From the NCBI GenBank assembly GCA_007376195.1, contig VMFT01000002.1:1273-65272 (forward strand): DNA of 64,000 nucleotides, given 5' to 3'. Below the pieces are notes generated by a model. The model saw only the letters and a list, made by a program, of their open reading frames with translations. It made no database searches and was not told the origin of the DNA. The stretch comes from Parcubacteria group bacterium Gr01-1014_29. Lineage in GTDB: Bacteria; Patescibacteriota; Minisyncoccia; Ryanbacterales; 2-02-FULL-48-12. Both the position numbers and the translations under genes were made by a program. Of this stretch, positions 7,946 through 64,000 are shown piece by piece (positions within the stretch are counted from its first letter, which is position 1; each line of letters starts with the position of its first letter).

Positions 7946-8029
7946 AGAAGTGCATCATCGGAGGCGGTGACTCTCATTGCACCGCCCCCAATTTTTCATC
8001 AACAACCAAACAGTCAAAGGAGAAAATCC

Positions 8030-11069: not shown

Positions 11070-11180
11070 TGAACTAGATTGTTTATCAGTGTGTATAAAC
11101 ACGCTTTTCTGTTGCATCTCGGCTGTTTTTATGGTATCTTCTTTGTGAACTACACAGAATAAATTTATAGGAGGTGCATA

Positions 11181-11672
11181 ATGGTAGTCATTGTTGTCAA
11201 AGATAATCGTCCGTTGAAGTTCGCGGTTGCTGTTGTAATTAGAAGTATAGATCGGAAAATGCTTTTTGTTGTACAACGGCCTCCCGACGATGATGAGTTT
11301 CCCGACATGTGGGGATTGCCTTCCGCAAGTGCGAAGCGTGGTGAGCTTCCCGAAGAAGTTGTGCGGCGCATTGGACGCGAAAAGCTCAATGTAGAACTCA
11401 CGCCGAATTGGTTTCTTGGCGTAAAATATGCCGAGCGAACTAATTACAAACTCATCTTGATGGATATGTGCGCTGACATTGCGGAAGGTGCTCTGAATGT
11501 CCGAATTGCAAACGTTCGCAACCGCGCAGTACCTGGTACAAAGTATGTTGACTGGCGGTGGGTGGAGGGTCTGGACATTCTCAAAGAAGCCGCGTCGCGC
11601 GGTTCCATCTGTTCGCAGATTCTTCTGGAGTATGAAGGTGTGGACTACCCAGACAAGAGGCACTTTAATTGA
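11181..11672 (+). CDS. Nudix-like hydrolase (degenerate Nudix box)
   Basis: GLPSASAKRGELPEEVVRRIGREKLNV approximates the Nudix box Gx5Ex7REuxEExGu. Confidence 0.35.
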   Translation: MVVIVVKDNRPLKFAVAVVIRSIDRKMLFVVQRPPDDDEFPDMWGLPSASAKRGELPEEVVRRIGREKLNVELTPNWFLGVKYAERTNYKLILMDMCADIAEGALNVRIANVRNRAVPGTKYVDWRWVEGLDILKEAASRGSICSQILLEYEGVDYPDKRHFN

Positions 11673-11772
11673 TATCGTTTCCAGCCCCCACGCTCATTTG
11701 AGTGTCGGGGCGTTTTCTTTTTCTACGCTCTTGCCGGTTGGCGGATTTTTTCGTGTTGTATGCTATGTCAAA

Positions 11773-12993: not shown

Positions 12994-13148
12994 ACATGTG
13001 TGACCCGATTTCCTTTCGTGGGTCACACATCTTGCGAGAGATGACACAAATAAGGCGCGAGTCTTTAATAAAAGCAATTATACCACATTCATATATATTT
13101 TGCAAGGACTGATGGCTGGGGCCTTTTTGATATACTATAAATGGTACC

Positions 13149-20586: not shown

Positions 20587-20587
20587 A

Positions 20588-20676
20588 TTAGGCGCTAGGC
20601 ACTAGGCGTTAGGAACTAAGAAAGAAAAATATCTTTCTAGCATCCAGAGCCTAAAGCCTAAAGCCTAAAGCCTAAT
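20588..20676. repeat. intergenic palindromic element, ctaggc/cctaaag arrayed-heptamer type
   Basis: Left arm ttaggcgctaggcactaggcgttagg, right arm cctaaagcctaaagcctaaagcctaa, around an AT-rich centre that has its own inner palindrome. Confidence 0.5.
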
Positions 20677-20678
20677 CT

Positions 20679-21716
20679 ATGCCTATTCAAAAAACAACAG
20701 AACGCGTGAACAGTAATAAACGCCGCATCATCAACGGAGAAGACGCGGATGTAATGCAGTTATACCCCATTAAGCACAAATTTGCGTGGGATGCGTATAT
20801 AATAGGGAACGCCAACCATTGGTTGCCAACCGAAGTCAACATGCAGCGCGATGTTGAGCAGTGGAAGTCTCCGTATGTTCTTACGGCGGACGAGCGTCTT
20901 GCGCTGGAAACCGTGCTTGGGTTTTTCACCACAGCCGATTCTCTCGCGGCAAACAACCTGGTGCTTGCCTCCTATAAGCACATCACTTCGCCCGAATGCC
21001 GGCTGTATTTATTGCGTCAGGCCTATGAAGAGGCAATCCATACGCATGCGTATCAATACATTGTAGAAAGCCTGGGTATGGATGAAGGGCGCCTGTTCAA
21101 CATGTACCGCGAGCATGATGCAATTTACAACAAAGACGCGTTTATCCTTACGTTTAACGAAGGCATTTTTGACCCTCACTTCAAAACCGGCACATTCGCG
21201 TCGGATCAGAAGTTTCTTGAGAACATGGTTGTGTTTTCAATTATTCTTGAAGGCATCTTTTTTTACAGCGCGTTTGCCGTTATGTTCGGGTTCCAGCGGC
21301 AAAATAAAATGGTTGGCGCGGCCGAGGAGATCCAATACATCATGCGCGATGAGTCTATGCACCTTAACTTCGGGATTAACGTTATAAATACTATAAAACA
21401 GGAGCAGCCGGAGTTGTGGACAAAGGATTTCCAGGAGCATGTCATGGAGCTTGTGAAAACAGCTGTTGTGCTTGAATCCACATTCGCGGCAAGCGTGTTT
21501 CCACACGGCATTTTCGGCATGAACGCCGATGGATTTCGTCAGTATATACAACATATTGCGGACCGCCGGCTGCAGCGGATAGGTCTTCTGGCAGCATATG
21601 GCAGTCAGAACCCATTTCCGTGGATGTCCGAAGCCATTGACCTTTCCAAGGAAAAAAATTTCTTTGAGACGCGCGTTATTGAATATCAGACCGGTGGCGC
21701 GTTAGAATGGGAATAG
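20679..21716 (+). CDS. nrdB: ribonucleoside-diphosphate reductase beta subunit
   Basis: Ferritin-like di-iron motifs (EAIHTHAY, ESMHLNF) and a C-terminal tail; directly follows nrdA. Confidence 0.75.
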   Translation: MPIQKTTERVNSNKRRIINGEDADVMQLYPIKHKFAWDAYIIGNANHWLPTEVNMQRDVEQWKSPYVLTADERLALETVLGFFTTADSLAANNLVLASYKHITSPECRLYLLRQAYEEAIHTHAYQYIVESLGMDEGRLFNMYREHDAIYNKDAFILTFNEGIFDPHFKTGTFASDQKFLENMVVFSIILEGIFFYSAFAVMFGFQRQNKMVGAAEEIQYIMRDESMHLNFGINVINTIKQEQPELWTKDFQEHVMELVKTAVVLESTFAASVFPHGIFGMNADGFRQYIQHIADRRLQRIGLLAAYGSQNPFPWMSEAIDLSKEKNFFETRVIEYQTGGALEWE

Positions 21717-29699: not shown

Positions 29700-29831
29700 G
29701 TACGCTAGAATAAAAATGGTAGTAGGTGAATATACGGGAGAAAAGTTGATATGTTTGGTTATTTAGAAAGCGCCTTTTAATTGAAAGGCGTTTTTTCTTT
29801 TGATGAGCTATACTAGAAGTGTATTTTAAAC

Positions 29832-29856
29832 TAACGCCTAAAGCCTAGCGCCTAAT
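29832..29856. repeat. solo arm of the ctaggc/cctaaag palindromic element family
   Basis: ctaacgcctaaagcctagcgcctaa immediately upstream of the ATG at 29863. Confidence 0.35.
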
Positions 29857-29862
29857 TTTTTT

Positions 29863-31737
29863 ATGAACTGGTTTCTTATATCACTTCTCGCACAGGTTGT
29901 TCTTGGCACCGCATCGGTGGTTGATAAGCTGTTCCTCAAAAAATCCTATCCAAATCCGGTAGGGTACACGTTTTGGATAGGAATATTAGGTTTAGTGTCG
30001 GTGTTTCTTTTGCCGTTCGGGTTTGAATGGGCAGAATCTGCAGTAGTGGTGCGTGCGTTGTGGGGAGGCGCTGTGTTTATGGCCGCACTTCTGCTTTTTT
30101 ATTGGGCATTGTATTACGGAGAAGCATCAGGGGCAGTGGTTGCCATTGGCGGTCTTTCGCCGGTAGCAACATTATTTTTTTCTTTTGTGCTCATGGGCGG
30201 TTCGCTTGCATCTTACGAAATTGCAAGCTTTTTTCTTTTGGTAATTGGCAGTTTTCTTCTGTCGTTTACCGCAGAGCGGACCGTGCGCCTGCGCGTGGCA
30301 GGGCTCGTTGCGGCAAGCGCCCTCTTATTTGGGTATTCCAATATTCTTGCCAAGCAAGTGTTTGACGCTACCTCATTTTTCACCGGATTTTTCTGGCTAA
30401 AAATCGGCGGAGTTATTGCGGTGTTCCTACTGTTTTTTTACGCGCCGTGGCGAAAGGCGATTCTCAATCCGGGAGAGAAAGACGAGTTTCATAATCGTCT
30501 TGGCTATTTTACCAACCGAGTGTACGCAGGCGTCGGTTCTATACTAATATATTACGCTATCGCATTAGGCGTGCCGCCGCTGGTGGATGCCATGCAGGCA
30601 GTACGGTTTTTATTTGTGTTTCTCGGCGGTTGGCTGGTGCTTCGTGAGACGTTTCGCGGAAAAATTCTTGCGCTAAAAATCGCCGCGTTTATAATAGTGT
30701 CTCTTGGGGTGTTGTTTCTCGGCGTGGGCACCTATCTCTCACACACAGCGCCAGATCCGAACCGGTCTATCGCGTGGGGAGTTACATTTTCAGAAAAATT
30801 CGCACGGGAATTTTTTGTGCCAAATGACAGTGCGCCCGGTCGGATGACCGGGTCGGATGAGTATTGGAAAAGTAACTATGACGCGATTCTTGATGATCTT
30901 GGCGTGCGGCATCTCCGATTGGTTGCTTACTGGGATCTTCTGGAGCCAACGGAAGGCGTATTTGATTTTTCAGGGCTTGACTATCAAATGCGCCGCGCGG
31001 AGAAAGTCGGGGCGGATGTTATCTTGGTGGTAGGAAAGAAAGTGCCGCGGTGGCCGGAGTGCCACACCCCGCACTGGGTGCGGGAATTTTCAATTTCCAA
31101 TTTTCAATTTCCAAACAAACAAGACGAAAAACTACTGGAGTTTGTTGAAGTAGTTGTAAAAAGATACAACGATTCTCCGGTACTTCGTTATTGGCAGGTG
31201 GAAAATGAACCATTTTTGCCGTTTGGAGAGGGAGCGTGCGCTCTTTCCGGGAAAGAGCTTTTGGAAAACGAAATAGAACTTGTGAAAAAACTAGACCCGG
31301 CGCATCCAGTTGTCATCACGGATTCAGGAGAAATTGGGGCGTGGGTGCGTGCCGCGAAACGCGGGGATGTATTTGGCACCACCATGTATAGAAGAGTACA
31401 CAACGACCGTCTTGGCAACTTCGAATATCCTATTGGTCCGTGGTTTTTCCGCGTGAAAGAAAAAATAGTCCGCTTTTTGCTTCAAGATTACGAGAAAAAA
31501 TTTATAGTGGTTGAACTTGGCATGGAGCCGTGGTTGCCCCAACAGCTCTATGAGACAACGCCGGAGGAACAAATGCAGGTTTTTGATTTTGAGTTTTTCA
31601 AAGATTCTGTGCGATTTGCCAAAGATACGGGGTTTGATGAGTACTATCTGTGGGGTGCTGAATGGTGGTATTGGTTAAAAACAAAACACAACGATCCCCG
31701 GTTTTGGGATGAGACGGGTGAGTTGTTTCCCAACTAA
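29863..31737 (+). CDS. fusion protein: N-terminal about 10-TM EamA/DMT-like membrane domain plus C-terminal TIM-barrel glycoside-hydrolase-like domain
   Basis: Hydrophobic N-terminal 300 aa; the C-terminal part has WQVENEP (GH5/GH42-like NEP catalytic motif). Confidence 0.5.
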   Translation: MNWFLISLLAQVVLGTASVVDKLFLKKSYPNPVGYTFWIGILGLVSVFLLPFGFEWAESAVVVRALWGGAVFMAALLLFYWALYYGEASGAVVAIGGLSPVATLFFSFVLMGGSLASYEIASFFLLVIGSFLLSFTAERTVRLRVAGLVAASALLFGYSNILAKQVFDATSFFTGFFWLKIGGVIAVFLLFFYAPWRKAILNPGEKDEFHNRLGYFTNRVYAGVGSILIYYAIALGVPPLVDAMQAVRFLFVFLGGWLVLRETFRGKILALKIAAFIIVSLGVLFLGVGTYLSHTAPDPNRSIAWGVTFSEKFAREFFVPNDSAPGRMTGSDEYWKSNYDAILDDLGVRHLRLVAYWDLLEPTEGVFDFSGLDYQMRRAEKVGADVILVVGKKVPRWPECHTPHWVREFSISNFQFPNKQDEKLLEFVEVVVKRYNDSPVLRYWQVENEPFLPFGEGACALSGKELLENEIELVKKLDPAHPVVITDSGEIGAWVRAAKRGDVFGTTMYRRVHNDRLGNFEYPIGPWFFRVKEKIVRFLLQDYEKKFIVVELGMEPWLPQQLYETTPEEQMQVFDFEFFKDSVRFAKDTGFDEYYLWGAEWWYWLKTKHNDPRFWDETGELFPN

Positions 31738-37992: not shown

Positions 37993-38067
37993 GCTCTAGA
38001 GGGTTAGGCGCTAGGCTTTAGGAAAAGATATAGAAATGTCTTCTAGAGCCTAAGGCCTAGTGCCTAA
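37991..38067. repeat. intergenic palindromic element (ctaggc type)
   Basis: ...gggttaggcgctaggctttagg ... cctaaggcctagtgcctaa, with nested ctctagag arms. Confidence 0.5.
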
Positions 38068-38079
38068 TTTTCTAAACAA

Positions 38080-38550
38080 ATGAGACGAAAACCAGCAACA
38101 AAACGAGAAATACCGGCAGATTACAAATGGGACTCCCCGCGAGTTGCCAAGTTTGTAAATATAATCATGTGGGACGGCAAGAAATCAGTTGCCGAACACG
38201 TTGTATATGATGCGTTGGATATCGTTGCAAAAAAAGCGAGCGTGGAAAATCCTGTCGTGGTTTTTGACCTTGCGCTCGACAATGTTGCGCCGCTTGTGGA
38301 AGTGCGTTCGCGCCGCGTAGGAGGTGCAAACTATCAAGTTCCGGTAGAGGTGCGCGGGCCGCGCCGCATGACGCTTGCGATGCGCTGGCTTGCAGCCGCC
38401 GCCCGTTCGCGCAAAGGCGCGCCTATGGCCGAACGCCTCGCGGAAGAGTTGTTTCTGGCATCCAAAAACGAAGGCGTTGCAATAAAGAAGAAACTAGACA
38501 CGCATCGCATGGCGGACGCCAACAAGGCATTTGCTCATTTTGCGTGGTAG
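38080..38550 (+). CDS. rpsG: 30S ribosomal protein S7
   Basis: S7 family sequence; canonical str-operon position. Confidence 0.9.
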
Positions 38551-44727: not shown

Positions 44728-45285
44728 ATGAAATATATTCTGGGTACAAAAAAAGAGATGACGCAGATGTTTCGCGTGGATGGTGTAACGGAACCAGTTA
44801 CGCTTGTTCAGGCTTTGCCGGTGGAGATTTCGCTTATTCGCACCGTGCAAAAAGATGGCTATGAAGCAGTACAGGTGCGCCAAGGCCGGGTGCGCCGCGA
44901 GTTTCGTATAATGGGTGGCGCGATCAGCGCTATCGAAGGCGTCCTCGGCGATACGCTGAATGTTGCGCAGTTTTTGGAGGGACAAAAGGTGACTGTTTCG
45001 GGCATATCCAAAGGGAAAGGATTTCAGGGAGGCGTGAAGCGGCACGGTTTTCACGGTGCGTCTAAAACACACGGCGTTAAGCACGCGCATCGCCAGCCCG
45101 GATCTATCGGCGCGGGCGGTGTGCAACGGGTTCTGAAAGGCCAGCGGATGGCCGGGCGCATGGGCAGTGATCGCGTTACAACCAAAGGGGTGCGCGTGGT
45201 AAAAGTCTATCCGGAGAAAAATCTGATCGCGTTAAAAGGCGGCATACCGGGAAGCAGGGGAAGTTTAGTGGAAATACGAGGATAA
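44728..45285 (+). CDS. rplC: 50S ribosomal protein L3
   Basis: Glycine-rich region of L3 plus order in the S10 operon. Confidence 0.85.
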   Translation: MKYILGTKKEMTQMFRVDGVTEPVTLVQALPVEISLIRTVQKDGYEAVQVRQGRVRREFRIMGGAISAIEGVLGDTLNVAQFLEGQKVTVSGISKGKGFQGGVKRHGFHGASKTHGVKHAHRQPGSIGAGGVQRVLKGQRMAGRMGSDRVTTKGVRVVKVYPEKNLIALKGGIPGSRGSLVEIRG

Positions 45286-45290
45286 GATGA

Positions 45291-45360
45291 TAGGCACTAG
45301 GCTCTAGGCATTAGGGAAAAAATATATGTTCCCAGCTAGTGCCTAAGGCCTAATGCCTAA
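45291..45360. repeat. intergenic palindromic element (ctaggc type)
   Basis: taggcactaggctctaggcattagg ... cctaaggcctaatgcctaa. Confidence 0.5.
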
Positions 45361-49542: not shown

Positions 49543-49628
49543 TTAGGCTTTAGGCGCTAGGCATTAGAACACTGAATGAAAACTATGTGTCTAGTCCTAG
49601 AGCCTAAGGACTACTATCTAGCGCCTAC
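49543..49628. repeat. intergenic palindromic element (ctaggc type)
   Basis: ttaggctttaggcgctaggcattag ... ctagtcctagagcctaagg ... ctagcgcctac. Confidence 0.5.
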
Positions 49629-49999: not shown

Positions 50000-50007
50000 A
50001 TAGCAAA

Positions 50008-50085
50008 CTAGGCATTAGGCTCTAGGCACTAGGAAAAGAAATACAAAAGCATTTTTTCCTAAAGCCTAACGCCTAGAGCCTAGAG
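50008..50085. repeat. intergenic palindromic element (ctaggc type)
   Basis: ctaggcattaggctctaggcactagg ... cctaaagcctaacgcctagagcctagag. Confidence 0.5.
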
Positions 50086-50091
50086 TATTCT

Positions 50092-50397
50092 ATGCGCATA
50101 AAAAAAGGTGACAACGTGAAAGTAATAAGCGGAAAGGACCGCGGTAAGACGGGTACGGTTGTTCGGGCTGTTCCGGATCAGGATCGTATTGTGGTAGATG
50201 GTTTGAATATACGAAAACGCCATGTCCGCGCGAAGCGTGCGGGGCAGAAAGGAGAAGTCGTACAATTTTCCGCTCCCCTGCATGTTTCAAATATACAGCT
50301 GGTCTGTACAAAATGCGGAAAAACAACCCGCGTGGGTTATCGGGTGGACGGAGCCGTTAAAAGCAGGGTGTGTAAAAAATGTGGAGCGGATATATAA
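50092..50397 (+). CDS. rplX: 50S ribosomal protein L24 with C-terminal CxxC...CxxC zinc ribbon
   Basis: KOW motif at the N-terminus; CTKCGK...CKKCG at the C-terminus. Confidence 0.85.
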   Translation: MRIKKGDNVKVISGKDRGKTGTVVRAVPDQDRIVVDGLNIRKRHVRAKRAGQKGEVVQFSAPLHVSNIQLVCTKCGKTTRVGYRVDGAVKSRVCKKCGADI

Positions 50398-50947: not shown

Positions 50948-51012
50948 GGCACTAGGCTCTAGGCCTTAGGATTCTAAGTCCTAGAGCCTAGTGCCTAGGT
51001 TCCTAGCGCCTA
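50942..51012. repeat. intergenic palindromic element (ctaggc type), overlapping the rplE stop
   Basis: cactagggcactaggctctaggccttagg ... cctagagcctagtgcctagg ... cctagcgcctag. Confidence 0.5.
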
Positions 51013-51017
51013 GTATT

Positions 51018-53231: not shown

Positions 53232-53669
53232 ATGCAACTGCATACCATATCAGCGCCAAAACATACATCTGCCAAACGCATTGGCCGCGGCGGCAAGCGC
53301 GGCACGTTTTCGGGTCGCGGCACCAAAGGCCAAAAAGCGCGGGCTGGTCGCCGTATTCGTCCGCAATTGCGCGATATATTGAAAAAAATCCCAAAGAAAC
53401 GCGGGTATCGTTTTACGTCATTTCGCGCGCGACCAATCGGTGTTAACCTTTCCATCCTCAATGAAAAGTTTGAGTCGGGCGGTGTTGTTTCTCCTCAGAC
53501 GCTTGTCGAAGGGGGCATGGTATCCCGGAAGGGTGGTGCGTATCCTTCCGTAAAGATTCTTGGCACAGGAATTATTTCAAAAAAGCTTACCATTGAAGGA
53601 TGTCAGATTTCCGCATCAGCAAAAGAGAAGATCGAAAAAGCGGGAGGAAAACTAGTAGCTAGGCGTTAG
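53232..53669 (+). CDS. rplO: 50S ribosomal protein L15 (directly after S5; no L30 gene in between)
   Basis: MQLHTISAPKHTSAKRIGRGGKRGTFSGRG; start taken inside ORF 53112..53669. Confidence 0.85.
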   Translation: MQLHTISAPKHTSAKRIGRGGKRGTFSGRGTKGQKARAGRRIRPQLRDILKKIPKKRGYRFTSFRARPIGVNLSILNEKFESGGVVSPQTLVEGGMVSRKGGAYPSVKILGTGIISKKLTIEGCQISASAKEKIEKAGGKLVARR

Positions 53670-53733
53670 GCACTAGGCGCTAGAGGAACAAAAAAATATT
53701 CTAGAGCCCTAAAGCCTAAAGCCTAAAGCCTAA
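53652..53733. repeat. intergenic palindromic element (ctaggc/cctaaag type), overlapping the rplO stop
   Basis: ctagtagctaggcgttaggcactaggcgctagagg ... ctagagccctaaagcctaaagcctaaagcctaaa. Confidence 0.5.
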
Positions 53734-53734
53734 A

Positions 53735-54997
53735 ATGAATAAAATCCTATTGATATTCAAAGACCCCGACCTCCGTAAGCGCGTTCTTTTCATGCTTGGT
53801 ATTTTGGTTGTATTCCGGCTTACGGCAGCTGTGCCTATTCCCGGTGTTGACATCGGGCAACTGCAGGCGTATCTGTCCGGAAACCAATTGCTTGGTTTGC
53901 TGAATATTTTCTCCGGCGGCGCTTTGGATAATCTTTCTATTATAATGTTGGGGCTGGGGCCGTATATTACCGGCTCAATTATTATGCAGTTGATGACATT
54001 GGTATTTCCTCAGCTGAAGGAAATGTATCAGGAAGCGGGGGAGGCAGGGCGGCAGAAGTTCAATCAGTACTCGCGTTTGCTGACGGTGCCTCTTGCATTG
54101 TTGCAGGGATACGGTTTGTTGACGCTTCTGTCGCGGCAGGGCATTTTTACTGACGCGAGTTTTGCCGGCATTGCGGTAAATGTTGTTATTGTTACGGCAG
54201 GAGCGCTATTTCTTATGTGGCTGGGAGAACTTATTTCCGAATATGGCATCGGAAATGGCGTTTCCATCATGATTTTCGCCGGCATTGTAGCTGGTGTGCC
54301 GTCGAGCATACAGCAGACGCTCTTTTCGTTTGACAGTTCGCAGATTCCGCTCTTTGTGACATTTGCGGTTCTGGCAATTGTTGTTATTGCTTCTATCGTG
54401 TTTATTACCGAAGGCGAGCGGCCGGTTCCGGTTTCTTACACCAAGCGCGTGCGCGGTATGCGCATGTACGGAGGGTTTTCCACGTATCTCCCTTTGCGGG
54501 TAAACCAGGCAGGCGTAATTCCGATTATCTTCGCGCTTTCCATACTTCTGTTCCCGCAAATGTTCGCGGGGTTTCTCGCGGTCTCTTCCAACTCGTTTCT
54601 GCGCGGCATAGCTGATGTGTTTACAAACTTTACGCAAAATCTGTTACTCTATGGTACCGCGTATTTTATTCTGGTGTTCTTTTTCACGTATTTTTATACG
54701 GCAGTCACTTTTGATCCGGATACCATTTCAAGCAATCTGCAAAAAAGTGGCGGGTTCGTTCCCGGTATTCGCCCGGGTCGGCCCACGGCGGATTTTTTGA
54801 GCAATATCATCACGCGCATAACGCTCGTTGGCGCATTATTTTTAGGGCTTATTGCCGTTCTGCCGTTTATGGTGCAGGCCGCAACCGGAATTGTAACGCT
54901 TACGCTGGGCGGCACGGCACTGCTTATTGTTGTCTCTGTTGTGCTTGAACTTATGAAGCAGTTACAGGGGAAATTGGTGATGCGGGAGTATGAATAG
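53735..54997 (+). CDS. secY: preprotein translocase subunit SecY
   Basis: 10-TM SecY signature; order. Confidence 0.9.
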   Translation: MNKILLIFKDPDLRKRVLFMLGILVVFRLTAAVPIPGVDIGQLQAYLSGNQLLGLLNIFSGGALDNLSIIMLGLGPYITGSIIMQLMTLVFPQLKEMYQEAGEAGRQKFNQYSRLLTVPLALLQGYGLLTLLSRQGIFTDASFAGIAVNVVIVTAGALFLMWLGELISEYGIGNGVSIMIFAGIVAGVPSSIQQTLFSFDSSQIPLFVTFAVLAIVVIASIVFITEGERPVPVSYTKRVRGMRMYGGFSTYLPLRVNQAGVIPIIFALSILLFPQMFAGFLAVSSNSFLRGIADVFTNFTQNLLLYGTAYFILVFFFTYFYTAVTFDPDTISSNLQKSGGFVPGIRPGRPTADFLSNIITRITLVGALFLGLIAVLPFMVQAATGIVTLTLGGTALLIVVSVVLELMKQLQGKLVMREYE

Positions 54998-55038
54998 CGC
55001 TATTTGGCTGGAAGTGATAAAATAAAGTAAGAGGTTAT

Positions 55039-55620
55039 ATGGAAAAACCGCTTAACGTCGTTTTTATCGGTGTCTCGGGTTCGGGTAAGGGCACGCAGGT
55101 AGAACTTCTTGTGGGTGTTTTGAATTTGCGCCAAAAAACAAAAATTATTTCTTCCGGTGATTTATTCCGTGATTTGCAAGAACACGACACGGATACGGCA
55201 CATCGTGTAAGAGAAATTTTGCAGAAGGGAGGATTGCCCTATGATGATTTAGCAACGGCGCTTTGGATGCATGAAATCGCTTATACCGTGAAGGAAGACG
55301 AGGGGATTGTTTTTGACGGCGCTCCACGACGCGTGCAAGAAGCGAAAAATATCGATAGCTTTTTTACATTCCTTGATCGGTTGGATATGTTACGCATTTT
55401 GCATTTAAATGCTTCGCCGGAAGAAGTAACCAGACGTCTCCTGAAACGCGGCCGTGTAGATGATAACGAACCTGCTATTGCCGGGCGGATTGCATATTTC
55501 AAAGAAAAAGTTTTGCCAGCCACACTCTATTACCAAGAACAGAATCGTCTTATCGAAATAAACGGTGAACAGAGCGTTGAAAAGGTACATAAGGATATCG
55601 TGAAAGCATTGAAGCTCTAA
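55039..55620 (+). CDS. adk: adenylate kinase
   Basis: P-loop GVSGSGKGTQ; order. Confidence 0.8.
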   Translation: MEKPLNVVFIGVSGSGKGTQVELLVGVLNLRQKTKIISSGDLFRDLQEHDTDTAHRVREILQKGGLPYDDLATALWMHEIAYTVKEDEGIVFDGAPRRVQEAKNIDSFFTFLDRLDMLRILHLNASPEEVTRRLLKRGRVDDNEPAIAGRIAYFKEKVLPATLYYQEQNRLIEINGEQSVEKVHKDIVKALKL

Positions 55621-55626
55621 GATACG

Positions 55627-56394
55627 ATGGCATTCATAAAGTCTAAAAAAGAGATTGAAGCGCTTCGGGAAGGTGGACAAAAGCTCGCGGAAATATTACG
55701 AAAGGTGGTTGAAACGGTAAAACCAGGCGTTACTACTAAAGAACTCGACAGGCTCGCGGAGAGCCTGATTTTGTCTGTCGGCGGCACGCCGTCGTTTAAG
55801 GGATATCACATTCCCGGCGCGCATACTCCCTACCCAGCGTCTTTGTGCACATCCATCAACGACGAGGTGGTGCATGGGATACCTTCGGAAAAACGAGTTC
55901 TGAAGGATGGAGATATTATCGGCCTTGATATTGGCATGAAGTATAAGCGGTTGTACACCGATATGGCGGTAACGGTTGGAGTTGGCGCGATAGACGCCGC
56001 ATCTCGCAAGCTTCTTTTGGTAACCGAACACGCGCTTGCGGAGGGTATTGTCCAAGTTCGCGCGGGCGCACATGTGGGAGATATCAGTGAGGCGGTTCAG
56101 ACGTATGCCGAAGATCACGGACTTGGCGTGGTGCGGGAACTCGTAGGGCATGGCGTGGGGCACGCGGTGCATGAAAATCCGCCCATACCAAATTTTGGCA
56201 GCCGGGGGCAGGGAGAAAAGCTTCGCGAAGGAATGGTGATCGCGATTGAGCCTATGCTCACAGCAGGAGATTATGCCGTTGTTCTTGCGCCCGATGATTG
56301 GACATGGAAAACAAAAGACGGTTCTCGCGCGGCGCATTTTGAACACACAGTGGCGGTTACGAAAGATGGCGTACGGGTGTTGACAAAGATATAG
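55627..56394 (+). CDS. map: methionine aminopeptidase type I
   Basis: Pita-bread metal ligands (D..D..H..E..E); order. Confidence 0.85.
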   Translation: MAFIKSKKEIEALREGGQKLAEILRKVVETVKPGVTTKELDRLAESLILSVGGTPSFKGYHIPGAHTPYPASLCTSINDEVVHGIPSEKRVLKDGDIIGLDIGMKYKRLYTDMAVTVGVGAIDAASRKLLLVTEHALAEGIVQVRAGAHVGDISEAVQTYAEDHGLGVVRELVGHGVGHAVHENPPIPNFGSRGQGEKLREGMVIAIEPMLTAGDYAVVLAPDDWTWKTKDGSRAAHFEHTVAVTKDGVRVLTKI

Positions 56395-56563
56395 TCTTGT
56401 GCTATCTTTTCTATAAATTTGCGGGCAGAAGATTAAAGGAGGTTAAAGAATGTCAAAGAGGATTTCACCTGTGATTGTTGACCTAGAAAAGTCCCAATTT
56501 GCTAAGACTAGGAGATAGGCACATGTTTTGCATGTGCTTTTTCTTTTGCTTTTGGCGCGTAGA

Positions 56564-56605
56564 AATTCCTAAAAATATGGACGGTCGTCCATATTTTTAG
56601 GAATT
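56564..56605. promoter_or_regulatory. 42-nt perfect palindrome (aattcctaaaaatatggacg-gt-cgtccatatttttaggaatt) followed by a T-run; terminator or operator between map and ruvX
   Basis: Read directly; followed by cttgctatttttta. Confidence 0.4.
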
Positions 56606-56641
56606 CTTGCTATTTTTTATGCGGTGTCATATCCTTTCTTC

Positions 56642-57043
56642 ATGCGGATTCTTGGCATTGATTATGGCACCAAACGTATCGGGTTTGCGGTGGGAGATAC
56701 TGATCAGAAAATTGCGTTCCCGCGTGATGTTATGGAAGGCCGTGCTAGAGCGCTTGATTACGTGGATAGAATGATAGATCAGGAAGGAATACAAAAAGTT
56801 ATTATCGGCATTCCCATGCGTCATAGTGGGGAAGAGGGAGAACTTGCCGGCGAGATCCGTATATTTGCAAAAGAGATAACAGAAAAACTTGGCGTGGAAG
56901 TGGTGTTCCAAAACGAGATCCTTTCCACAAAAGCCATTCAGCAAGGCACTGTTTCTAAAGATAAAATAGACGCCGCGAGCGCCGCGCTTATTTTGCAGAG
57001 CTATCTTGATAGAATTATGAACCCAGAATCACGCGCCCACTAG
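56642..57043 (+). CDS. ruvX: Holliday-junction resolvase-like YqgF/RuvX
   Basis: MRILGIDYGTKRIGFAVGD. Confidence 0.75.
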   Translation: MRILGIDYGTKRIGFAVGDTDQKIAFPRDVMEGRARALDYVDRMIDQEGIQKVIIGIPMRHSGEEGELAGEIRIFAKEITEKLGVEVVFQNEILSTKAIQQGTVSKDKIDAASAALILQSYLDRIMNPESRAH

Positions 57044-57204
57044 CGCCTAAACGTAGCGGCAGCGGGTAGGCGAATTATTGCTTAGTGTACATCTTTTGAC
57101 GATAGGAAAAAGATGTACACTACTGTGGATTACAAAATGTGATAATGTGTTGCCAGGAATTGTGGTATTTCGTAATTCAACGTACCCTATGGTAAAGTAT
57201 CCCT

Positions 57205-57948
57205 ATGGAACGCGAACGTCCCTATCTCTCAATAATTGTTCCCACGTATAACGAGGAAAAACGCATTGAAAAAACGTTGCGGCGGCTTGATGAATATTTG
57301 CGGCAGCAATCGTATACATACGAAATTCTTGTGGTGGTTGACAATGCAACTGATAAAACTGCTGACATTGTACGCGGACTTGAGGTATCTATCCCACACA
57401 TGCGACTCTTGTGGAGGGATGTCAACTTCGGCAAGGGCGGTTCCGTGGTGCGCGGCATGGCGGAGGCAAAAGGCGAGATTCGGTTGTTTACCGATGCTGA
57501 CAATTCAACAGATATAACACACTTCGAAAAAATGAAACCGCTTTTTGATGAAGGATATGATATTGTTATTACGTCACGCAATCATTTAGACGCAGCGGGT
57601 GCAACCCAAGCCATATCTCAATCGTGGTTCAAACGCATCATGGGCATGGCAGGGAATATCTTTATTCAAGTTGTTGCCGTTCGGGGCATTTGGGACACAC
57701 AAAACGGTTTTAAAGCATTTCGTTTTTCCGTGGCACAGCGCATTTTTCCCCAGCTTGCGATTCATGGCTGGGGGTTTGACATTGAGATATTAGCGCTTGC
57801 GCGGGCAATGAACTCGCGTATCGGGATTATACCTGCGCATTGGATGAACGACGAAGAAAGCCATGTGCGCTTGATAAATTACTTTCAAGTTTTGTGGGAG
57901 ACGGTTCTTGTACGGTGGAATCTGATTACCGGGAAATATAAGATTTAA
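57205..57948 (+). CDS. family 2 glycosyltransferase (dolichyl-phosphate mannosyltransferase-like)
   Basis: LSIIVPTYNEE, VVVDNATD, DAD. Confidence 0.7.
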   Translation: MERERPYLSIIVPTYNEEKRIEKTLRRLDEYLRQQSYTYEILVVVDNATDKTADIVRGLEVSIPHMRLLWRDVNFGKGGSVVRGMAEAKGEIRLFTDADNSTDITHFEKMKPLFDEGYDIVITSRNHLDAAGATQAISQSWFKRIMGMAGNIFIQVVAVRGIWDTQNGFKAFRFSVAQRIFPQLAIHGWGFDIEILALARAMNSRIGIIPAHWMNDEESHVRLINYFQVLWETVLVRWNLITGKYKI

Positions 57949-57955
57949 TTTTCTG

Positions 57956-58996
57956 ATGTTTTCCAGAAAAAAAACAGAAAAACACAGCGAGTTGGTTTCC
58001 GAACTCCGAAAAGACGCCGTATCTGGTGAATGGATACTAGTTGCCGCGGGCCGCTCAAAGCGTCCGGGCGAGTTTAATCGGCATAAACACAAGAAGCCGC
58101 AGCCGCAGAGCTCGTGTCCGTTTGAAGATACGCGTATTAATGGGGAAGATCCCTTACTATGGTATCCACATCCGGAGAGCGGCGTGAAAGATTCTCTAGA
58201 TGAATGGTTTGTGCAGGTGATAGCCAATAAATACCCTGCGCTCATGCCGCACGCGGATCGTACATGTGCTATGATAAGCGATACCGGACCGTATAAACGG
58301 ATGGACGGTGTTGGGTACCACGAGATTATTGTAACGCGCCCGCATGAACGAAGTCTTGGCGCTATGACAATAGACGAGGCGGGTCTTGTGATACGCGCGT
58401 ATCGCGAACGGTTTGCCGCGCTTAAAAAAGATCCTTGTGTGGCGTATATTTTAGTATTTCACAACGATGGTGAGGAAGCGGGCGCGTCAATTAGTCATCC
58501 TCATTCACAACTCATTGCGTTTCCCATTATTCCGCCCGACGTACAGCAAAGCATTCGCGGATCTACGGAGTTTTACAACGTGCACGACGCATGCATTCAC
58601 TGCCGTATGATTGCATGGGAGCTGGAAGACGGAGAACGCATAGTGTTTGAAAACGAGAAATTTATTGTAATAGCGCCGTATGCGTCGCGCGTATCGTTTG
58701 AATTGCGCATCTATCCACGTGAGCATGCTCCGCATTTTGACCTTATGCCCGAACCCCAGCTTGATCTTTTTGCCCAAGCGCTTACGGTTACTCTCAAAAA
58801 GTTGCAGGATGCTCTGGGAGACCCCGCGTATAACTTTTTTATCCATACAGCTCCCACAAACCAGCACGACGGCGAGTTTTATCATTGGCATTTGGAAATA
58901 CTTCCTAAGACGGCAGTGCCGGCCGGTCTGGAACTTGGCACGGGGGTTGATGTTGTGACGGTGGCACCGGAGGATGTGCCGGGGTTACTGACATGA
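57956..58996 (+). CDS. galactose-1-phosphate uridylyltransferase-like HIT-family nucleotidyltransferase
   Basis: CPFE Zn-site region and HPHSQ active-site motif (cf. GalT HPHGQ). Confidence 0.55.
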   Translation: MFSRKKTEKHSELVSELRKDAVSGEWILVAAGRSKRPGEFNRHKHKKPQPQSSCPFEDTRINGEDPLLWYPHPESGVKDSLDEWFVQVIANKYPALMPHADRTCAMISDTGPYKRMDGVGYHEIIVTRPHERSLGAMTIDEAGLVIRAYRERFAALKKDPCVAYILVFHNDGEEAGASISHPHSQLIAFPIIPPDVQQSIRGSTEFYNVHDACIHCRMIAWELEDGERIVFENEKFIVIAPYASRVSFELRIYPREHAPHFDLMPEPQLDLFAQALTVTLKKLQDALGDPAYNFFIHTAPTNQHDGEFYHWHLEILPKTAVPAGLELGTGVDVVTVAPEDVPGLLT

Positions 58997-59009
58997 AAAT
59001 TCTTACGTT

Positions 59010-59609
59010 ATGAAATATAAACTGCCTCTCGTACATAGTTTGTATCATTGGACCTTGAAATGGGCAGCGCATCCGCACGCGGCGTGGATGCTTTTTTTGG
59101 TTGCATTTATTGAGAGTTCAGTATTTTTAATTCCGCCGGACGTATTGCTCATTCCCATGACACTTGCGGAGCCTCGAAAATGGTTCCGGTTTGCGCTCAT
59201 CACAACCAGCGCCTCTGTGCTGGGGGGTATAGCAGGCTATTATATCGGGTATGGTTTGTGGGAGACAGTAGGAAAACCCGTAATCGAGTTTTATAAATTT
59301 GAAGAAGCTATGATTGCTGTTGGGGCGCAGTATAGGGCAAATGCGTTTTGGGCAATTTTTACCGCAGCGCTCACCCCTATTCCGTATAAGGTATTTACTA
59401 TTTCAGCGGGTCTTTTTCATATACCATTAACAACACTGGTGGTCGCTTCCATTGTGGGGCGCGGTTTGCGTTTTTTCGCAGTGGGGTGGCTTATCAGAAC
59501 ATACGGTGATCCTATAAAAGTATTTATTGAAAAGTATTTTGATATACTTACCGTTGCTCTGGTTGTTTTATTGGTAGGCGGTTTTCTTGTCATACGATTT
59601 CTTATATAA
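59010..59609 (+). CDS. YqaA/DedA-family membrane protein
   Basis: Hydrophobic profile and the IESSVFLIPPDVLLIP motif. Confidence 0.5.
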   Translation: MKYKLPLVHSLYHWTLKWAAHPHAAWMLFLVAFIESSVFLIPPDVLLIPMTLAEPRKWFRFALITTSASVLGGIAGYYIGYGLWETVGKPVIEFYKFEEAMIAVGAQYRANAFWAIFTAALTPIPYKVFTISAGLFHIPLTTLVVASIVGRGLRFFAVGWLIRTYGDPIKVFIEKYFDILTVALVVLLVGGFLVIRFLI

Positions 59610-59613
59610 AGAA

Positions 59614-60399
59614 ATGAAAAAACTTATTGTCGCAAACTGGAAGTGTAATCCCGCAACTTTGCGCCAAGCGCAGGAGTTGTTTCGCGCGACAATTAAGGCG
59701 GTCCCAAAAAGCAAAAATGTTAAGGTTGTTGTCTGTCCTCCTTCTGTGTATCTTTCAGGCTTCAGGTTTTCCGCCAAAGGCGGATCCGCCTTTGGCGGAC
59801 AAGTTTCAGGTCTTAAGCTCGGCGCCCAAGACGTGTTTTGGGAAGATACAGGAGCATATACGGGTGCGGTGGGTCCGCGGATGTTGAAGAGCGTCGGCGT
59901 GACATATGTCGTCATGGGGCATTCGGAGCGGAGAGAACAATTTGGCGATACGAACGAGTCGGTAAGAAAGAAAGTGGCGGCGGCTCTGAAAGGGGGCCTC
60001 TGCGTTATTGTATGCGTGGGCGAGAAAACGCGAGAAGCCGATGCGTCAGAATACGCGTTATATGTGAAGAAAGAGGTTGAAGAAGCTCTTCGCGGCATTT
60101 CAAAGGCGGCGCTGAAAAATGTGGTGGTGGCATACGAGCCGTTATGGGCTATTGGATCGGATGAGGCGGATACGCCGGAAAGCACGCTTGAGATGGCATT
60201 GTATATCCGCAAAATAATTGCTGGTATGTTTGGTAATGTAGTCGCGCAGAGTTTTCCCGTGCTCTATGGCGGATCGGTAAACATAGGAAACGCGCGCGCT
60301 TTTTTGCGAGATGGCGGCGTTGATGGTTTATTGGTAGGGAGGGCAAGTTTGGACTCAAAGGCGTTTGGGAAGATAGTTGAGGAAGCAAATGGTTTATAA
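59614..60399 (+). CDS. tpiA: triosephosphate isomerase
   Basis: VANWKCN, GHSERR, AYEPLWAIGS, GGS. Start taken at MKKLIVANWK. Confidence 0.85.
   Translation: MKKLIVANWKCNPATLRQAQELFRATIKAVPKSKNVKVVVCPPSVYLSGFRFSAKGGSAFGGQVSGLKLGAQDVFWEDTGAYTGAVGPRMLKSVGVTYVVMGHSERREQFGDTNESVRKKVAAALKGGLCVIVCVGEKTREADASEYALYVKKEVEEALRGISKAALKNVVVAYEPLWAIGSDEADTPESTLEMALYIRKIIAGMFGNVVAQSFPVLYGGSVNIGNARAFLRDGGVDGLLVGRASLDSKAFGKIVEEANGL
59771..59798. repeat. 28-nt perfect palindrome ccgccaaaggcggatccgcctttggcgg inside the tpiA reading frame, flanked by ttcagg direct repeats
   Basis: Read directly; it encodes an extra SAKGGSAFGG loop relative to canonical TIM. Confidence 0.5.
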
Positions 60400-60471
60400 A
60401 AATATAAAATGTAAATATCAAAATGTAAAATGATTCCGGTGCAACCGGAATAAAGTTCTAAAATCATCATT

Positions 60472-61602
60472 GTGCTCTCTCAAAAACTTCCCGTTTTTAA
60501 TAAATCAGTTACGGTATCCAACAAGCGTGTCATCGTGCGTGTTGATTTTAACGTGCCTCTTGAACATGGTGGTATTGCGGATGACTACCGCATCATAAAA
60601 ACACTTCCGCTGTTAGAGCAGCTCCGTAGCGGAGGCGCGCGCCTTGTGTTGTTGAGCCATCTTACGGAAAAAAAGGAACACCGGAGTTTTGCTGCTTTGG
60701 TGGATGAGCTCAACCGCATTGTGGGGTTAGGCATGGTGTTTGCAAAAAGTGTTGAGGAGGCTCGTCAGAACGGCGCAGATGTTGTGCTTCTTGAAAATCT
60801 CCGCGTGTTTCCGGGCGAAGAACGAAACGATGTTGTGTTTGCCGAAGAGCTTTCTACGCTCGGGGATATATTTATCAATGAAGGTTTTTCGCAATCGCAC
60901 CGGCCGTATGCAAGCATCATGCATCTTCCAAAACTTCTTCCGTCTTATGCCGGCCCCCTATTTTATGAAGAAGTGATGAAACTGGAAGAAGCGCTAAATC
61001 CCGAGCGGCCGTTTATGCTGGTGCTGGGCGGCGTAAAATTTGCGACGAAAGTCGGTGTGTTGGAGCACTTTATGAAAACTGCCGACAAGATTTTTGTGGG
61101 CGGCGCGCTTGCAAATACGTTTCTTGCCGCAAAGGGGCATCGGGTTGGCGCGTCCCCAGTAGAAAAGGACGCTTTTGAATACGTTCGCGAAATGTTTTTA
61201 AATTCTCCCAATCTTATGCTTCCTTCGGATGTGCGCGTGGGAGAGAATAAGACGTTAGGCATAGGGAATATAGGAGAACGGGATGTCGTATATGACATAG
61301 GTCCCGCATCGTCTGACGCTCTTGGGCGCGTTTTGGGAGATATGAAGATGATACTCTGGAACGGCCCGCTGGGGTGCGTGGAAGAGGGGTATGGCCAGGG
61401 AACGGCTAATCTCCTTTCTGTTCTTGCCGCAACCAAAGCAAAAGTAATAATTGGCGGTGGAGATACTCTGGCGGTTGTACGCAACCAAGGGTTGGAGAAC
61501 AGGTTTTACCATCTCTCCACAGGTGGCGGCGCTATGTTAGAATTTTTGGCGAAAGGCACGTTGCCTGGCATTGAAGCGATACTTGACAACACAAAAGACT
61601 AA
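60472..61602 (+). CDS. pgk: phosphoglycerate kinase
   Basis: RVDFNVP and the hinge/nucleotide motifs. Confidence 0.85.
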   Translation: MLSQKLPVFNKSVTVSNKRVIVRVDFNVPLEHGGIADDYRIIKTLPLLEQLRSGGARLVLLSHLTEKKEHRSFAALVDELNRIVGLGMVFAKSVEEARQNGADVVLLENLRVFPGEERNDVVFAEELSTLGDIFINEGFSQSHRPYASIMHLPKLLPSYAGPLFYEEVMKLEEALNPERPFMLVLGGVKFATKVGVLEHFMKTADKIFVGGALANTFLAAKGHRVGASPVEKDAFEYVREMFLNSPNLMLPSDVRVGENKTLGIGNIGERDVVYDIGPASSDALGRVLGDMKMILWNGPLGCVEEGYGQGTANLLSVLAATKAKVIIGGGDTLAVVRNQGLENRFYHLSTGGGAMLEFLAKGTLPGIEAILDNTKD

Positions 61603-61747
61603 AAAGTTTGTTGCGGTAGTATTCAAAGCTAGAATTCTGGCTTTTTTCTTTTTTCAAAAAAGAATGATATACTATACCTCATGCTGAATTTTTATATGTT
61701 GTTTTTCTTTTCCAGTCTCCAGTCTCTAATTTCCAGCCTCTAGTGTT

Positions 61748-62533
61748 ATGTGGTACAAAGACGCATCAGAATTTATGGCAGAAATGGGACACAACCGCGA
61801 CGGCACATGGTACCCGCGCGTGACAAAAATACTCGATGTAAAATCAAAACCGGCGCTTGAGATATTTATGCGCGAAGTCGGCAGTTATGAAGCGGCTGAA
61901 GACATCAAAAACAAATCGGCCGAGGAAGGGAGTTTGGTGCATGAAGTGGTGCAGAAGGTCGCCACCGGGAAGCCTGTGAATGTTCCCGCTTCCATTGCGC
62001 CTGCCGTAGCGGCGTTTCAGGATTTCGCATCAAAACGTGGCATTCAGATGCATCCTGATTTTATTGAATGGCCTGTCATTTCTTCGAAGAATAGGTACAC
62101 GGGTACGGTGGACGCGCTTGCCGAGATCGACAGTAAGTTCGGCGTGCTTGATATCAAAACATCCACCGGGTTTTATCGGGAATACAATCTGCAGACCGCG
62201 GCATATGTGTCGGCAATTCAGGAGCCGGATTCCATGCGTATTCTTGCTTTGCCGCGCCCCATAGAGACGCGCTGGATTTTGCGTGTAAACCAACACCGCA
62301 TCTGCACGAAATGCAAAGCTACGCTGCGCGAGAAAGGCGGGCGTAACAAAATTAGAAATGCTAACATTGCTTCGTCGTGCCCGGAAGACGCGCACGAGTG
62401 GGGAGAGGTAGAAGGAGATGTGGAGCTCAAAGAATTTCCATATTATTATGCTGATGTAAAAGCGTTTCTTGCCGCAAAAACGCTTTGGGAGTGGGAACAT
62501 AGTTACTGGTTGCGGCAGGTGGGATATCTTTAA
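61748..62533 (+). CDS. hypothetical PD-(D/E)XK-like nuclease-fold protein with inserted Cys4 zinc ribbon
   Basis: GTVDAL ... LDIKTS (D...D/E-x-K) and CTKCKATL...SSCPED. Confidence 0.35.
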   Translation: MWYKDASEFMAEMGHNRDGTWYPRVTKILDVKSKPALEIFMREVGSYEAAEDIKNKSAEEGSLVHEVVQKVATGKPVNVPASIAPAVAAFQDFASKRGIQMHPDFIEWPVISSKNRYTGTVDALAEIDSKFGVLDIKTSTGFYREYNLQTAAYVSAIQEPDSMRILALPRPIETRWILRVNQHRICTKCKATLREKGGRNKIRNANIASSCPEDAHEWGEVEGDVELKEFPYYYADVKAFLAAKTLWEWEHSYWLRQVGYL

Positions 62534-62576
62534 AAATAATGTTATAATTATGATTATAATGCAGGACGTTCCATTT

Positions 62577-62608
62577 CCATCCATCCATCCATCCATCCAT
62601 CCATCCAT
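62577..62608. repeat. (CCAT)8 tetranucleotide microsatellite (plus one more CCAT 2 nt upstream)
   Basis: Read directly between the convergent 3' ends. Confidence 0.7.
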
Positions 62609-62668
62609 CATTCTAATGTAGAAGAAGCATTTTTGTGTGTACCGCACTGCTTTTCGCAGTGTTTTTTG

Positions 62669-63718
62669 TTATTCATGGAGCCAGAACCAGTATTGATTTT
62701 TTAGATCGTTGGTAAAGGCGTATGTATTGGCGTGAGAAAGTACCCCGAGATAAGATTGGAGAGATTGTTCGACGGCTTCGTAAGATATAATCCCTTGTTT
62801 ATGTTCACGAATGCGCCAAAAAAGTTTTTTGAGTATGCGCTTCTTGGTTTTTGTACGAAGTTGCTGATAATGCGGCAAAACAATATAGCCCAAAAAATCT
62901 ATGCCCTGATGAAATTTCCGAATCGTGACTTTGTTGGGATGCAGATTGAGAGTAAGGTTCTCTTTCAAAAACTTGCTGATTAATGGAATCAGGCCCTCAA
63001 GATAATTTCTATTATCAGAAACAACCACAAAATCATCCGTATAGCGAAGGTAGTTTTTTACTTTAAGCTCATGCTTCATAAATTGATCAAACTCATTCAT
63101 ATATACGTTCGCAAAGAGTTGCGATGTCAGATTTCCAATGGGTACACCTTTGCGTTCAAAAAAGTTGGAATATTTGGTAGTGAAGCTCTCTACAATCTCG
63201 GAGAGCAACCACACCGTGTCAGTATCTTTGATTCTTTTGCCAAGAATACGAAGCAGTACGCCATGGTCGATCGTATCAAAAAACTTTCTCACGTCGCATT
63301 TCAAGGCAAAAGATTTTTTGTGTCCATTGCCGCTAATCTTGCGAATGATGTTCGCAAGGGCCTTTATTCCTTTGTGGGTTCCTTTTCCAATGCGACAGGA
63401 AAAGGATTTTGCAATGAACGTGGGTTCAAAGATTGGATTGAGCATGGTAAAAATGGCGTGATGCAAGATCCGATCTCGCACCGTCGCCTTATGGATATGG
63501 CGAGGTTTTGGGTCCTTTATCCAAAAGCCGCTATAAGCGCCATGTTTGTATTGTTTTGTACGCAAGTCGCGATGCAGTGCAAAGATATTTTCCTCCAGTC
63601 GCCATTCAAATTCCTGCACGTCAATCCTATTCCGCTTATCGCTCTTAAAAGCGTCCCAGGCGGAAAAAAGATTTTCCAATGAGATTATTCGTTCGTAAAT
63701 ATTCTTATAAACTTTCAT
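62669..63718 (-). CDS. reverse transcriptase of diversity-generating retroelement (DGR) type
   Basis: RT motifs FALKCDVRKFFDTIDH (motif A), GVPIGNLTSQLFANVYMNEFD (with the DGR-diagnostic IGxxxSQ) and YLRYTDDFVV (YxDD); no endonuclease domain; AT-rich. Start taken at the Met of MKVYKNIYERI; the ORF track extends to 63775. Confidence 0.6.
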   Translation of the reverse strand: MKVYKNIYERIISLENLFSAWDAFKSDKRNRIDVQEFEWRLEENIFALHRDLRTKQYKHGAYSGFWIKDPKPRHIHKATVRDRILHHAIFTMLNPIFEPTFIAKSFSCRIGKGTHKGIKALANIIRKISGNGHKKSFALKCDVRKFFDTIDHGVLLRILGKRIKDTDTVWLLSEIVESFTTKYSNFFERKGVPIGNLTSQLFANVYMNEFDQFMKHELKVKNYLRYTDDFVVVSDNRNYLEGLIPLISKFLKENLTLNLHPNKVTIRKFHQGIDFLGYIVLPHYQQLRTKTKKRILKKLFWRIREHKQGIISYEAVEQSLQSYLGVLSHANTYAFTNDLKNQYWFWLHE

Positions 63719-63726
63719 AATTATTA

Positions 63727-64000
63727 TGCAAGACCTTGATATACCAATCTTCAAAAAGACGTACGATTTGTACAACGAATTCTACGGTCTTCGCAATGGC
63801 GTTCCCAAGCAAGATAGATTTACCATTTGGCAGCGTTGCGAAAATCTTATTCTTGAGATTCTGGAGTATATCCTCGACGCAAGCCGACTCTCTAAAATAG
63901 AGAAGCTACCCATACTCCAAAAAGCGAGCACAAAACTTAACCTGCTCCGCGTATTCCTTCGGCTCTGCAAGGACACGAAGGTATTGGATAGCAAAAAGTA
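63727..64000 (+). CDS. partial (runs off the window): Avd-like four-helix-bundle protein (23S rRNA IVS protein family), divergent from the RT
   Basis: Plus-strand frame from the ATG at 63727 is open to the window end: MQDLDIPIFKKTYDLYNEFYGLRNGVPKQDRFTIWQRCENLILEILEYILDA... The helical periodicity resembles Avd. Confidence 0.35.

Follow-up and report, generated by a model that had tools for sequence, protein, structure and literature searches.

Genes and repeats at the locus

The DNA analysed here, called the window, is a stretch of 64,000 nucleotides (nt) from Parcubacteria group bacterium Gr01-1014_29, whose end carries the gene of a reverse transcriptase (RT) that very probably belongs to an intact diversity-generating retroelement (DGR). 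The gene is complete and encodes 349 amino acids (aa); its open reading frame (ORF), on the minus strand and ending at 62669, carries GVPIGNLTSQLFANVYMNEF and NYLRYTDDFVVVS. Motif 4 of the protein reads IGNLTSQ and the catalytic site YTDD, in line with the DGR pattern of [I/L/V]GxxxSQ together with YxDD. A domain search matched the RT to Pfam RVT_1 with 86 bits (cut-off 29.6) and found no endonuclease (En) or any other extra domain. With 39-41% G+C, the RT region is more AT-rich than its flanks (47-59%). Among solved structures the best match is chain 8ub7_A (328 aa, nine entries), which aligns end to end with E 2.7e-43. This chain is the Bordetella phage RT, bRT, with K29, F66, R74, I76, D138, I181, G182 and Q187 at the positions numbered in the bRT-Avd cryo-EM preprint (10.1101/2023.10.23.563531), where the residues that contact the template and the deoxynucleotide are given. 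All eight residues and the catalytic pair D215/D216 are kept in the aligned RT of the window.

Divergent from the RT gene lies avd (accessory variability determinant), which is cut by the window edge. The avd gene starts at the ATG at 63726-63728 (plus strand) and the RT gene at the ATG at 63718-63716 (minus strand), rather than farther upstream in the longer RT ORF; the RT start is the same in the gene calls of a second assembly, described below. Only 7 nt separate the two start codons, and therefore the promoter and the ribosome-binding site of each gene must lie inside the other gene. Weak promoter-like sites are indeed found on the RT strand within antisense avd. In most of the closer relatives the two start codons are between about 15 nt apart and slightly overlapping, and the first 15 avd codons have a slightly lower third-codon entropy (1.06 bits) than the rest of the gene (about 1.2-1.5 bits). 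The 90 readable residues of the partial Avd score 40.7 bits with Pfam bAvd (cut-off 40) and 54.3 bits (E 1.3e-14) with NCBIfam DivGenRetAVD, where they stay under the cut-off of 80 only because the ORF is truncated. The complete protein, of 116 aa, reaches 87.1 bits with DivGenRetAVD and 70.9 bits with bAvd. The preliminary description of this DNA, made from the letters alone, had recognised a DGR-type RT by its two motifs, had noted its likeness to bRT, its AT-richness and its lack of an En domain, and had read the partial divergent ORF as an Avd-type protein; all of this is borne out, with the RT start refined to 63718.

A DGR copies a template repeat (TR) into a variable repeat (VR). Neither a repeat search nor a self-BLAST with an adenine-bias filter found a TR/VR pair, or any adenine-biased repeat pair, in the 64-kb window, as the preliminary description had also reported. 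The region beyond the edge was reached in a second assembly, through the 261-aa protein encoded next to the RT gene. Its contig in ENA (L081; 17,770 nt) matches window positions 54001-64000 with 99.96% identity (4 mismatches, no gaps) and runs 6.6 kb past the window; adding 52798 to an L081 position gives the window-equivalent position used in Table 1. In this contig the avd gene is complete, and a TR of 107 nt lies 125-231 nt past the window end, followed at 656-762 nt by a VR of the same length, which forms the last 36 codons of a 285-aa target ORF and ends 5 nt ahead of its stop codon. The two repeats have 15 differences, all 15 at adenines of the TR, and no ordinary substitutions. The search of flanking DNA for such a pair, proposed in the preliminary description, is thus answered in L081. 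The TR contains 26 adenines, of which 12 are at codon position 1, 14 at position 2 and none at position 3, and nine in-frame AAC codons. The L081-derived TR was also searched against the window, and no remote VR was found.

The 3' segment common to TR and VR is identical, GC-rich and free of adenine: GTTGGCCTCGGGGCGTCCCGG. The final 23 nt of the TR equal those of the VR and are GC-rich (GTTGGCCTCGGGGCGTCCCGGAA), and the homology stops right after them, so that IMH and IMH*, the initiation of mutagenic homing sites of the two repeats, are inseparable by sequence. This identical segment may play the part of an IMH counterpart, the GC-rich repeat end that bounds mutagenesis in DGRs. A GC-rich inverted repeat begins about 30 nt past the VR. 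The genes around the element are housekeeping ones: one flank has those of ribosomal proteins, secY, adk, map, galT, tpiA and pgk, and the opposite flank has comEC, msrA and tatD. This indicates that the element is chromosomal and not phage-borne.

Table 1. Positions of the retroelement and of neighbouring features in the window, or window-equivalent positions beyond its end (above 64000)
Feature	Window or window-equivalent position	L081 position	Strand	Basis
RT gene, 349 aa, complete	62669..63718		-	ORF and motifs, Pfam RVT_1, bRT alignment
Gap between divergent start codons, 7 nt	63719..63725		.	Window sequence; L081 gene calls
avd, first 91 of 116 codons in window	63726..64000		+	Pfam bAvd, NCBIfam DivGenRetAVD
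avd, complete at 116 aa	end at 64076	10928-11278	+	
Region of structured leader, TR and hairpin	64077-64547	11279-11749	minus	Covariation, model R1
Hairpin	~64081-64108		RT strand	Per-sequence search
TR, 107 nt	64125-64231	11327-11433	RT strand	A-only differences to VR
Structured leader, ~300 nt, with promoter-like TACAAT	to ~64547		RT strand	
Target ORF, 285 aa	64649-65506	11851-12708	RT strand	Last 36 codons = VR
VR, 107 nt	64656-64762	11858-11964	RT strand	3' end of target gene
Sigma-70 consensus promoter		12773-12801	-	
RNase HI gene	65636-66076	12838-13278	+	
ORF of 261 aa	61748-62533		+	
(TCCA)8 run	62576-62609			
Heptamer-like repeats	~20587-20690, 29831-29870, 38004-38082, 45282-45336, 49550-49582, 50007-50105, 50974-51013, 53651-53748			
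Heptamer-like repeats, further sites	21707, 38542, 38976, 51197, 51262			

Relatives, target protein and assignment of the element

Relatives of the RT were sought in one genome for each GTDB species, and 424 stretches were found to encode them; the counts given here refer to the best 80, which have 48-90% identity and come nearly all from metagenome-assembled genomes (MAGs) of Patescibacteria. All 76 loci with upstream sequence have, on the opposite strand, an avd homologue that abuts the RT start; the remaining four of the 80 have no upstream flank. About 60 of the 80 have an adenine-biased TR on the RT strand, approximately 400-530 nt upstream of the RT, and in these a target gene usually carries the VR at its 3' end, some 500 nt farther upstream. 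The relatives had thereby predicted a TR just past the window edge before L081 was inspected. In the survey of Wu et al. 2018 (PMC5758913) the architecture B3, TR-(avd)-RT, accounts for 90% of the DGRs of the candidate phyla radiation (CPR) and is nearly absent elsewhere. The present locus has this arrangement, with avd on the plus strand and the RT on the minus strand in the window, and the TR beyond avd in L081.

Two Kuenenbacteria MAGs among the relatives (L006 and L007) have 98.85% identity over 4.1 kb and identical TRs. Their VRs (positions 8980-9086) have 15 differences, all at sites of TR adenines, and only two differences are found across the whole TR-avd-RT stretch. Judged from these sequences, the pair is direct evidence for recent mutagenic retrohoming in the family. 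More clustered differences between the two MAGs are present within the target gene (8085-8803).

The 285-aa target protein is one of at least 267 family members, annotated as hypothetical; it has no sequence match in Pfam, NCBIfam or the PDB, and no secretion signal is evident in it. An AlphaFold model built with 52 homologues (predicted local distance difference test 79, predicted template modelling score 0.72) begins with a helical N-terminal part, after which comes an alpha/beta domain at the C-terminus; the all-helical N-terminal domain comprises about 100 residues and has no known relative. The model scored 6.0-6.8 against domains of the FGE, EgtB and SenA type and 4-5 against dozens of C-type lectin domains. 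Regarding DGR variable proteins, the scores were 6.2 for TvpA (Treponema denticola, 2y3c), 5.4 for Mtd (1yu0) and 5.0 for TaqVP (Thermus aquaticus, 5vf4), three proteins with no detectable sequence similarity to the target. These scores are moderate and all point in one direction, suggesting that the C-terminal domain is the C-type-lectin-like scaffold usual in DGR targets. The variable residues would then lie on a C-type lectin fold, which with the immunoglobulin fold is what is looked for in DGR targets. The VR loop is modelled at low confidence, and low confidence is expected for a hypervariable segment. Upstream of the target gene in L081 there is a perfect sigma-70 consensus promoter (TTGACA-17-TATAAT, 12/12).

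All the parts of a DGR are thus present and intact at the locus, the differences between TR and VR are at adenines only, and a related pair of genomes has diversified recently. We consider it very probable that the window holds the RT-Avd core of an intact chromosomal DGR of the CPR/Patescibacteria type with B3 architecture, composed of a target gene with its VR, the TR, an inverted avd and the RT. It is extremely unlikely that the RT is of another class, be it group II intron or group II-like (G2L), retron, or a defence RT of the DRT or abortive infection (Abi) kind, and that its neighbour is an unrelated protein of the 23S-IVS type. The best raw NCBIfam score of the RT does belong to the group II RT/maturase model TIGR04416 (155.8 bits), with weaker matches to Drt2, Drt3a and retron models, and the Avd-like protein weakly matches Pfam 23S_rRNA_IVP (28.7 bits, cut-off 33.8). 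However, the classification by profiles suggested in the preliminary description leaves the RT far under the curated cut-off of every such model: 300 bits for TIGR04416, 235 for retron_St85 (61 bits), 200 for Drt3a (75), 390 for Drt2 (75), 450 for Drt4 (31) and 250 for AbiA (20), and likewise for Drt5 and the retron-TIR models. The best structure match to a group II intron RT (E 2.9e-25) is 18 orders of magnitude behind bRT, and Avd passes an equivalog model that is specific for DGRs. An Rfam search of L081 9800-13000 found no real family, group II intron and retron families included (two matches with E ~0.4-0.55, far under the gathering scores, are due to chance), and a TR/VR pair with adenine-only differences adjoins RT and avd.

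The preliminary description had left open whether the TR and the target lie beyond position 64000 or the RT is solo. The first alternative proved right in L081. A solo or decaying remnant, in which the source genome has lost its TR or VR and the RT is a relic or serves some other role, would agree with the absence of both repeats from the window and with a metagenome scan in which the 26-mer just upstream of the VR gave no matches to further VR copies of this strain. We nevertheless hold it to be very improbable, for the nearly identical L081 carries the complete cassette directly adjoining, the RT and Avd ORFs are intact with all the catalytic residues, and the TR position expected from 60 relatives falls just outside the window. 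Somewhat more weight, while still unlikely, is given to a DGR that is intact but at present silent, with its VR fixed in the population: L081 provides a single VR sequence for this strain, and part of the divergence between TR and VR could be old. Against such silence stand the complete adenine specificity of this divergence over 107 nt, the integrity of all the ORFs and RNA elements, and the recent VR turnover in the related genome pair.

For an intact DGR, three things are inferred: its biochemistry, where its RNA begins and ends, and its present activity in the source organism. The TR-containing RNA would be transcribed, as in the homologous Bordetella phage DGR, and the RT-Avd complex would copy it to cDNA with misincorporation opposite template adenines. 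The cDNA would then replace the VR, rewriting up to 13 codons of the ligand-binding surface of the lectin-like C-terminal domain of the target, and the TR itself would remain unchanged through the cycle. As a DGR, the element is a further example of the commonest CPR type, and a divergent Avd is the norm for this host group. It shares with the B3 DGRs of CPR and DPANN (PMC5758913) the way the genes are ordered and oriented, the Patescibacteria host, the chromosomal location and a small target, of unknown function, whose VR is C-terminal. Nothing essential differs, and the 5' leader described below and the 7-nt gap between start codons are unmentioned in the literature examined. Regarding annotation, the RT should not be labelled an intron, retron or defence gene, and the 285-aa "hypothetical" protein would be a hypervariable C-type-lectin-like binder.

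RNA around the template repeat

Between the target gene and the TR, approximately 300-400 nt are conserved across the family, though RT identity drops to about 50%. This region holds a leader of about 300 nt with at least five covarying helices, whose frequent G-U pairs place it on the strand of the RT and the TR. Its 3' half, module B (about 137 nt), has a long-range closing stem P1 (11 bp) around P2, P3 and a variable hairpin. When 36 sequences are aligned plainly with MAFFT, 97.1% of the cells of module B pair, versus 75.3% after shuffling and 38-54% when the partners are slid by 1-3 columns; compensatory changes occur in 21 of the 25 pairs, and the covariation score is 0.79, versus 0.33 in the shuffled and 0.12-0.21 in the slid control. 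At least two further covarying hairpins are present in the 5' half, and upstream of it lie the terminator of the target gene and a TAnAAT-like box (TACAAT in L081).

A covariance model of module B, R1, found 60 matches in 1.23 Mb, at 59 loci and all on the RT strand (for example 9350-9481 in L003 and 9349-9480 in L010), and none elsewhere or in the window. With enough flank available in 69 loci, R1 matches 58 of them, including 24 sequences outside model building, and the misses are the most distant relatives. R1 thus acts as a marker specific to the TR. With its end a median of 1 nt inside the TR/VR homology, each match abuts the point where this homology starts. The 3' strand of P1 stops within a few nucleotides of that point, so that P1 falls precisely on the 5' limit of the segment that is copied. 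Locus L066, at 7920-8139 and 9369-9597, has two TRs, each preceded by its own leader, hence two R1 matches, and each with its own adenine-biased VR. The leader stays with the TR even in loci whose target is inverted or lies at a distance (L013, L018, L025, L027 and L030), which argues that it is not a DNA signal flanking the VR. The third codon positions of avd are saturated throughout the gene, with an entropy of about 1.0 bit at two-fold and 1.8-2.0 bits at four-fold sites. From this it follows that no conserved RNA runs antisense to avd, and that the conservation of the leader is more than recent common descent.

On the other side of the TR, a hairpin is present in 60 of 61 loci, and its stem runs for 7 bp or more (median 12) without interruption. 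It begins a median of 14 nt past the end of the TR/VR homology, and a median of 8 nt separates its end from the avd stop codon. The stems have 53 different sequences, usually flanked by an A-tract and a U-tract in the manner of a terminator. The stems vary in length; RNAalifold on the MAFFT alignment missed this hairpin, which was found by a search of each sequence, and in L081 it was not picked up by a simple scan for terminators.

To our knowledge, the mechanism of reverse transcription in DGRs is known from a single phage element, whose essential RNA elements are 3' of the template. In this element, of phage BPP-1, these elements are located in a 140-nt spacer (Sp) and comprise an Avd-binding stem-loop, the priming adenosine, a "cPRT stop" duplex, a thumb ring and a bRT-binding stem-loop (preprint 10.1101/2023.10.23.563531). 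BPP-1 (mtd-avd-TR-Sp-brt; structures 8ub7-8ube) and the present DGR have RTs that are homologous over their full length with conserved contact residues, and both have an Avd partner, adenine-specific differences between TR and VR, and a 3'-terminal VR in the gene of a protein with the C-type lectin fold, which in the present target is a modelled one. The hairpin after the TR, the only one 3' of it, also corresponds in position to the Avd-binding stem-loop of BPP-1, Sp3-33. In contrast to BPP-1, where the DGR is a phage tail-fibre system, the present element is chromosomal in a CPR bacterium, avd is inverted between TR and RT, so that antisense avd occupies the position of the spacer, and the structured RNA is 5' of the TR, with no conserved 140-nt Sp RNA 3' of it. 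A structured RNA 5' of a reverse-transcribed template, with a closing stem that abuts the template, is also found in the non-coding RNA (msr-msd) of retrons. This is an analogy only, as the RT clade differs, there is neither msDNA (multicopy single-stranded DNA) nor an effector gene, Rfam gives no retron match, and the product is homed into a gene.

A primer-template duplex between the conserved purine-rich junction of the leader (GGAUGG) and the pyrimidine-rich linker after the TR was considered but found no support, with energies of -12.06 kcal/mol for cognate and -11.98 kcal/mol for non-cognate combinations. No antiparallel run of at least four columns with 85% pairing or more was found between leader junction and linker. 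Given the equal energies and the lack of a conserved pairing run, a 7-bp complementarity that occurs in L081 only (GAUGGGA/UCCCAUC) is unsupported.

The leader has no counterpart in Rfam 15, and we found no description of it in Wu et al. 2018, in a 2022 review or in the bRT-Avd preprint, in which only 40 nt upstream of the TR were examined; Paul et al. 2017 may hold one. We tentatively propose, at slightly less than an even chance, that the DGR RNA of this Patescibacteria lineage is encoded by a self-contained gene of about 460 nt for a non-coding RNA, with an organisation unlike the paradigm of the Bordetella phage. Promoter, structured leader, TR and hairpin would together form a separate transcription unit. 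Should the leader have a function, the elements for recruiting RT and Avd, perhaps along with the priming site, could have moved from the 3' spacer to the 5' leader, and P1 could act as a cDNA stop at which mutagenesis has its 5' limit. DGRs of the CPR type are very numerous in nature. Were the proposal true, those with a 5' leader would offer a second RNA solution, evolved independently, for comparison with the phage element, and the covariance model could be used to find TRs without a VR in reach and to design constructs for reconstitution.

Neighbouring genes and repeats

Two genes next to the element were considered as accessory genes of the DGR and rejected. In L081 an RNase HI gene is divergent from the target gene; it adjoins the DGR in only two of the 80 relatives and is probably a housekeeping gene that is there by coincidence. 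At the other end, the 261-aa ORF, convergent with the RT gene, encodes an orphan protein with a weak signature of Cas4 or PD-(D/E)XK nucleases (TIGR00372, 25 bits, cut-off 65) and no Pfam match, and adjoins the DGR in none of the 80 related loci. Between this ORF and the 3' end of the RT gene lies a tetranucleotide run, (TCCA)8, a possible slipped-strand site with the same copy number in L081, where the alignment is gap-free. Elsewhere in the window, families of short repeats are built of heptamer-like units, of the CTAAAGC/CTAGGCN and ACGAAT/ATTCGTA types.

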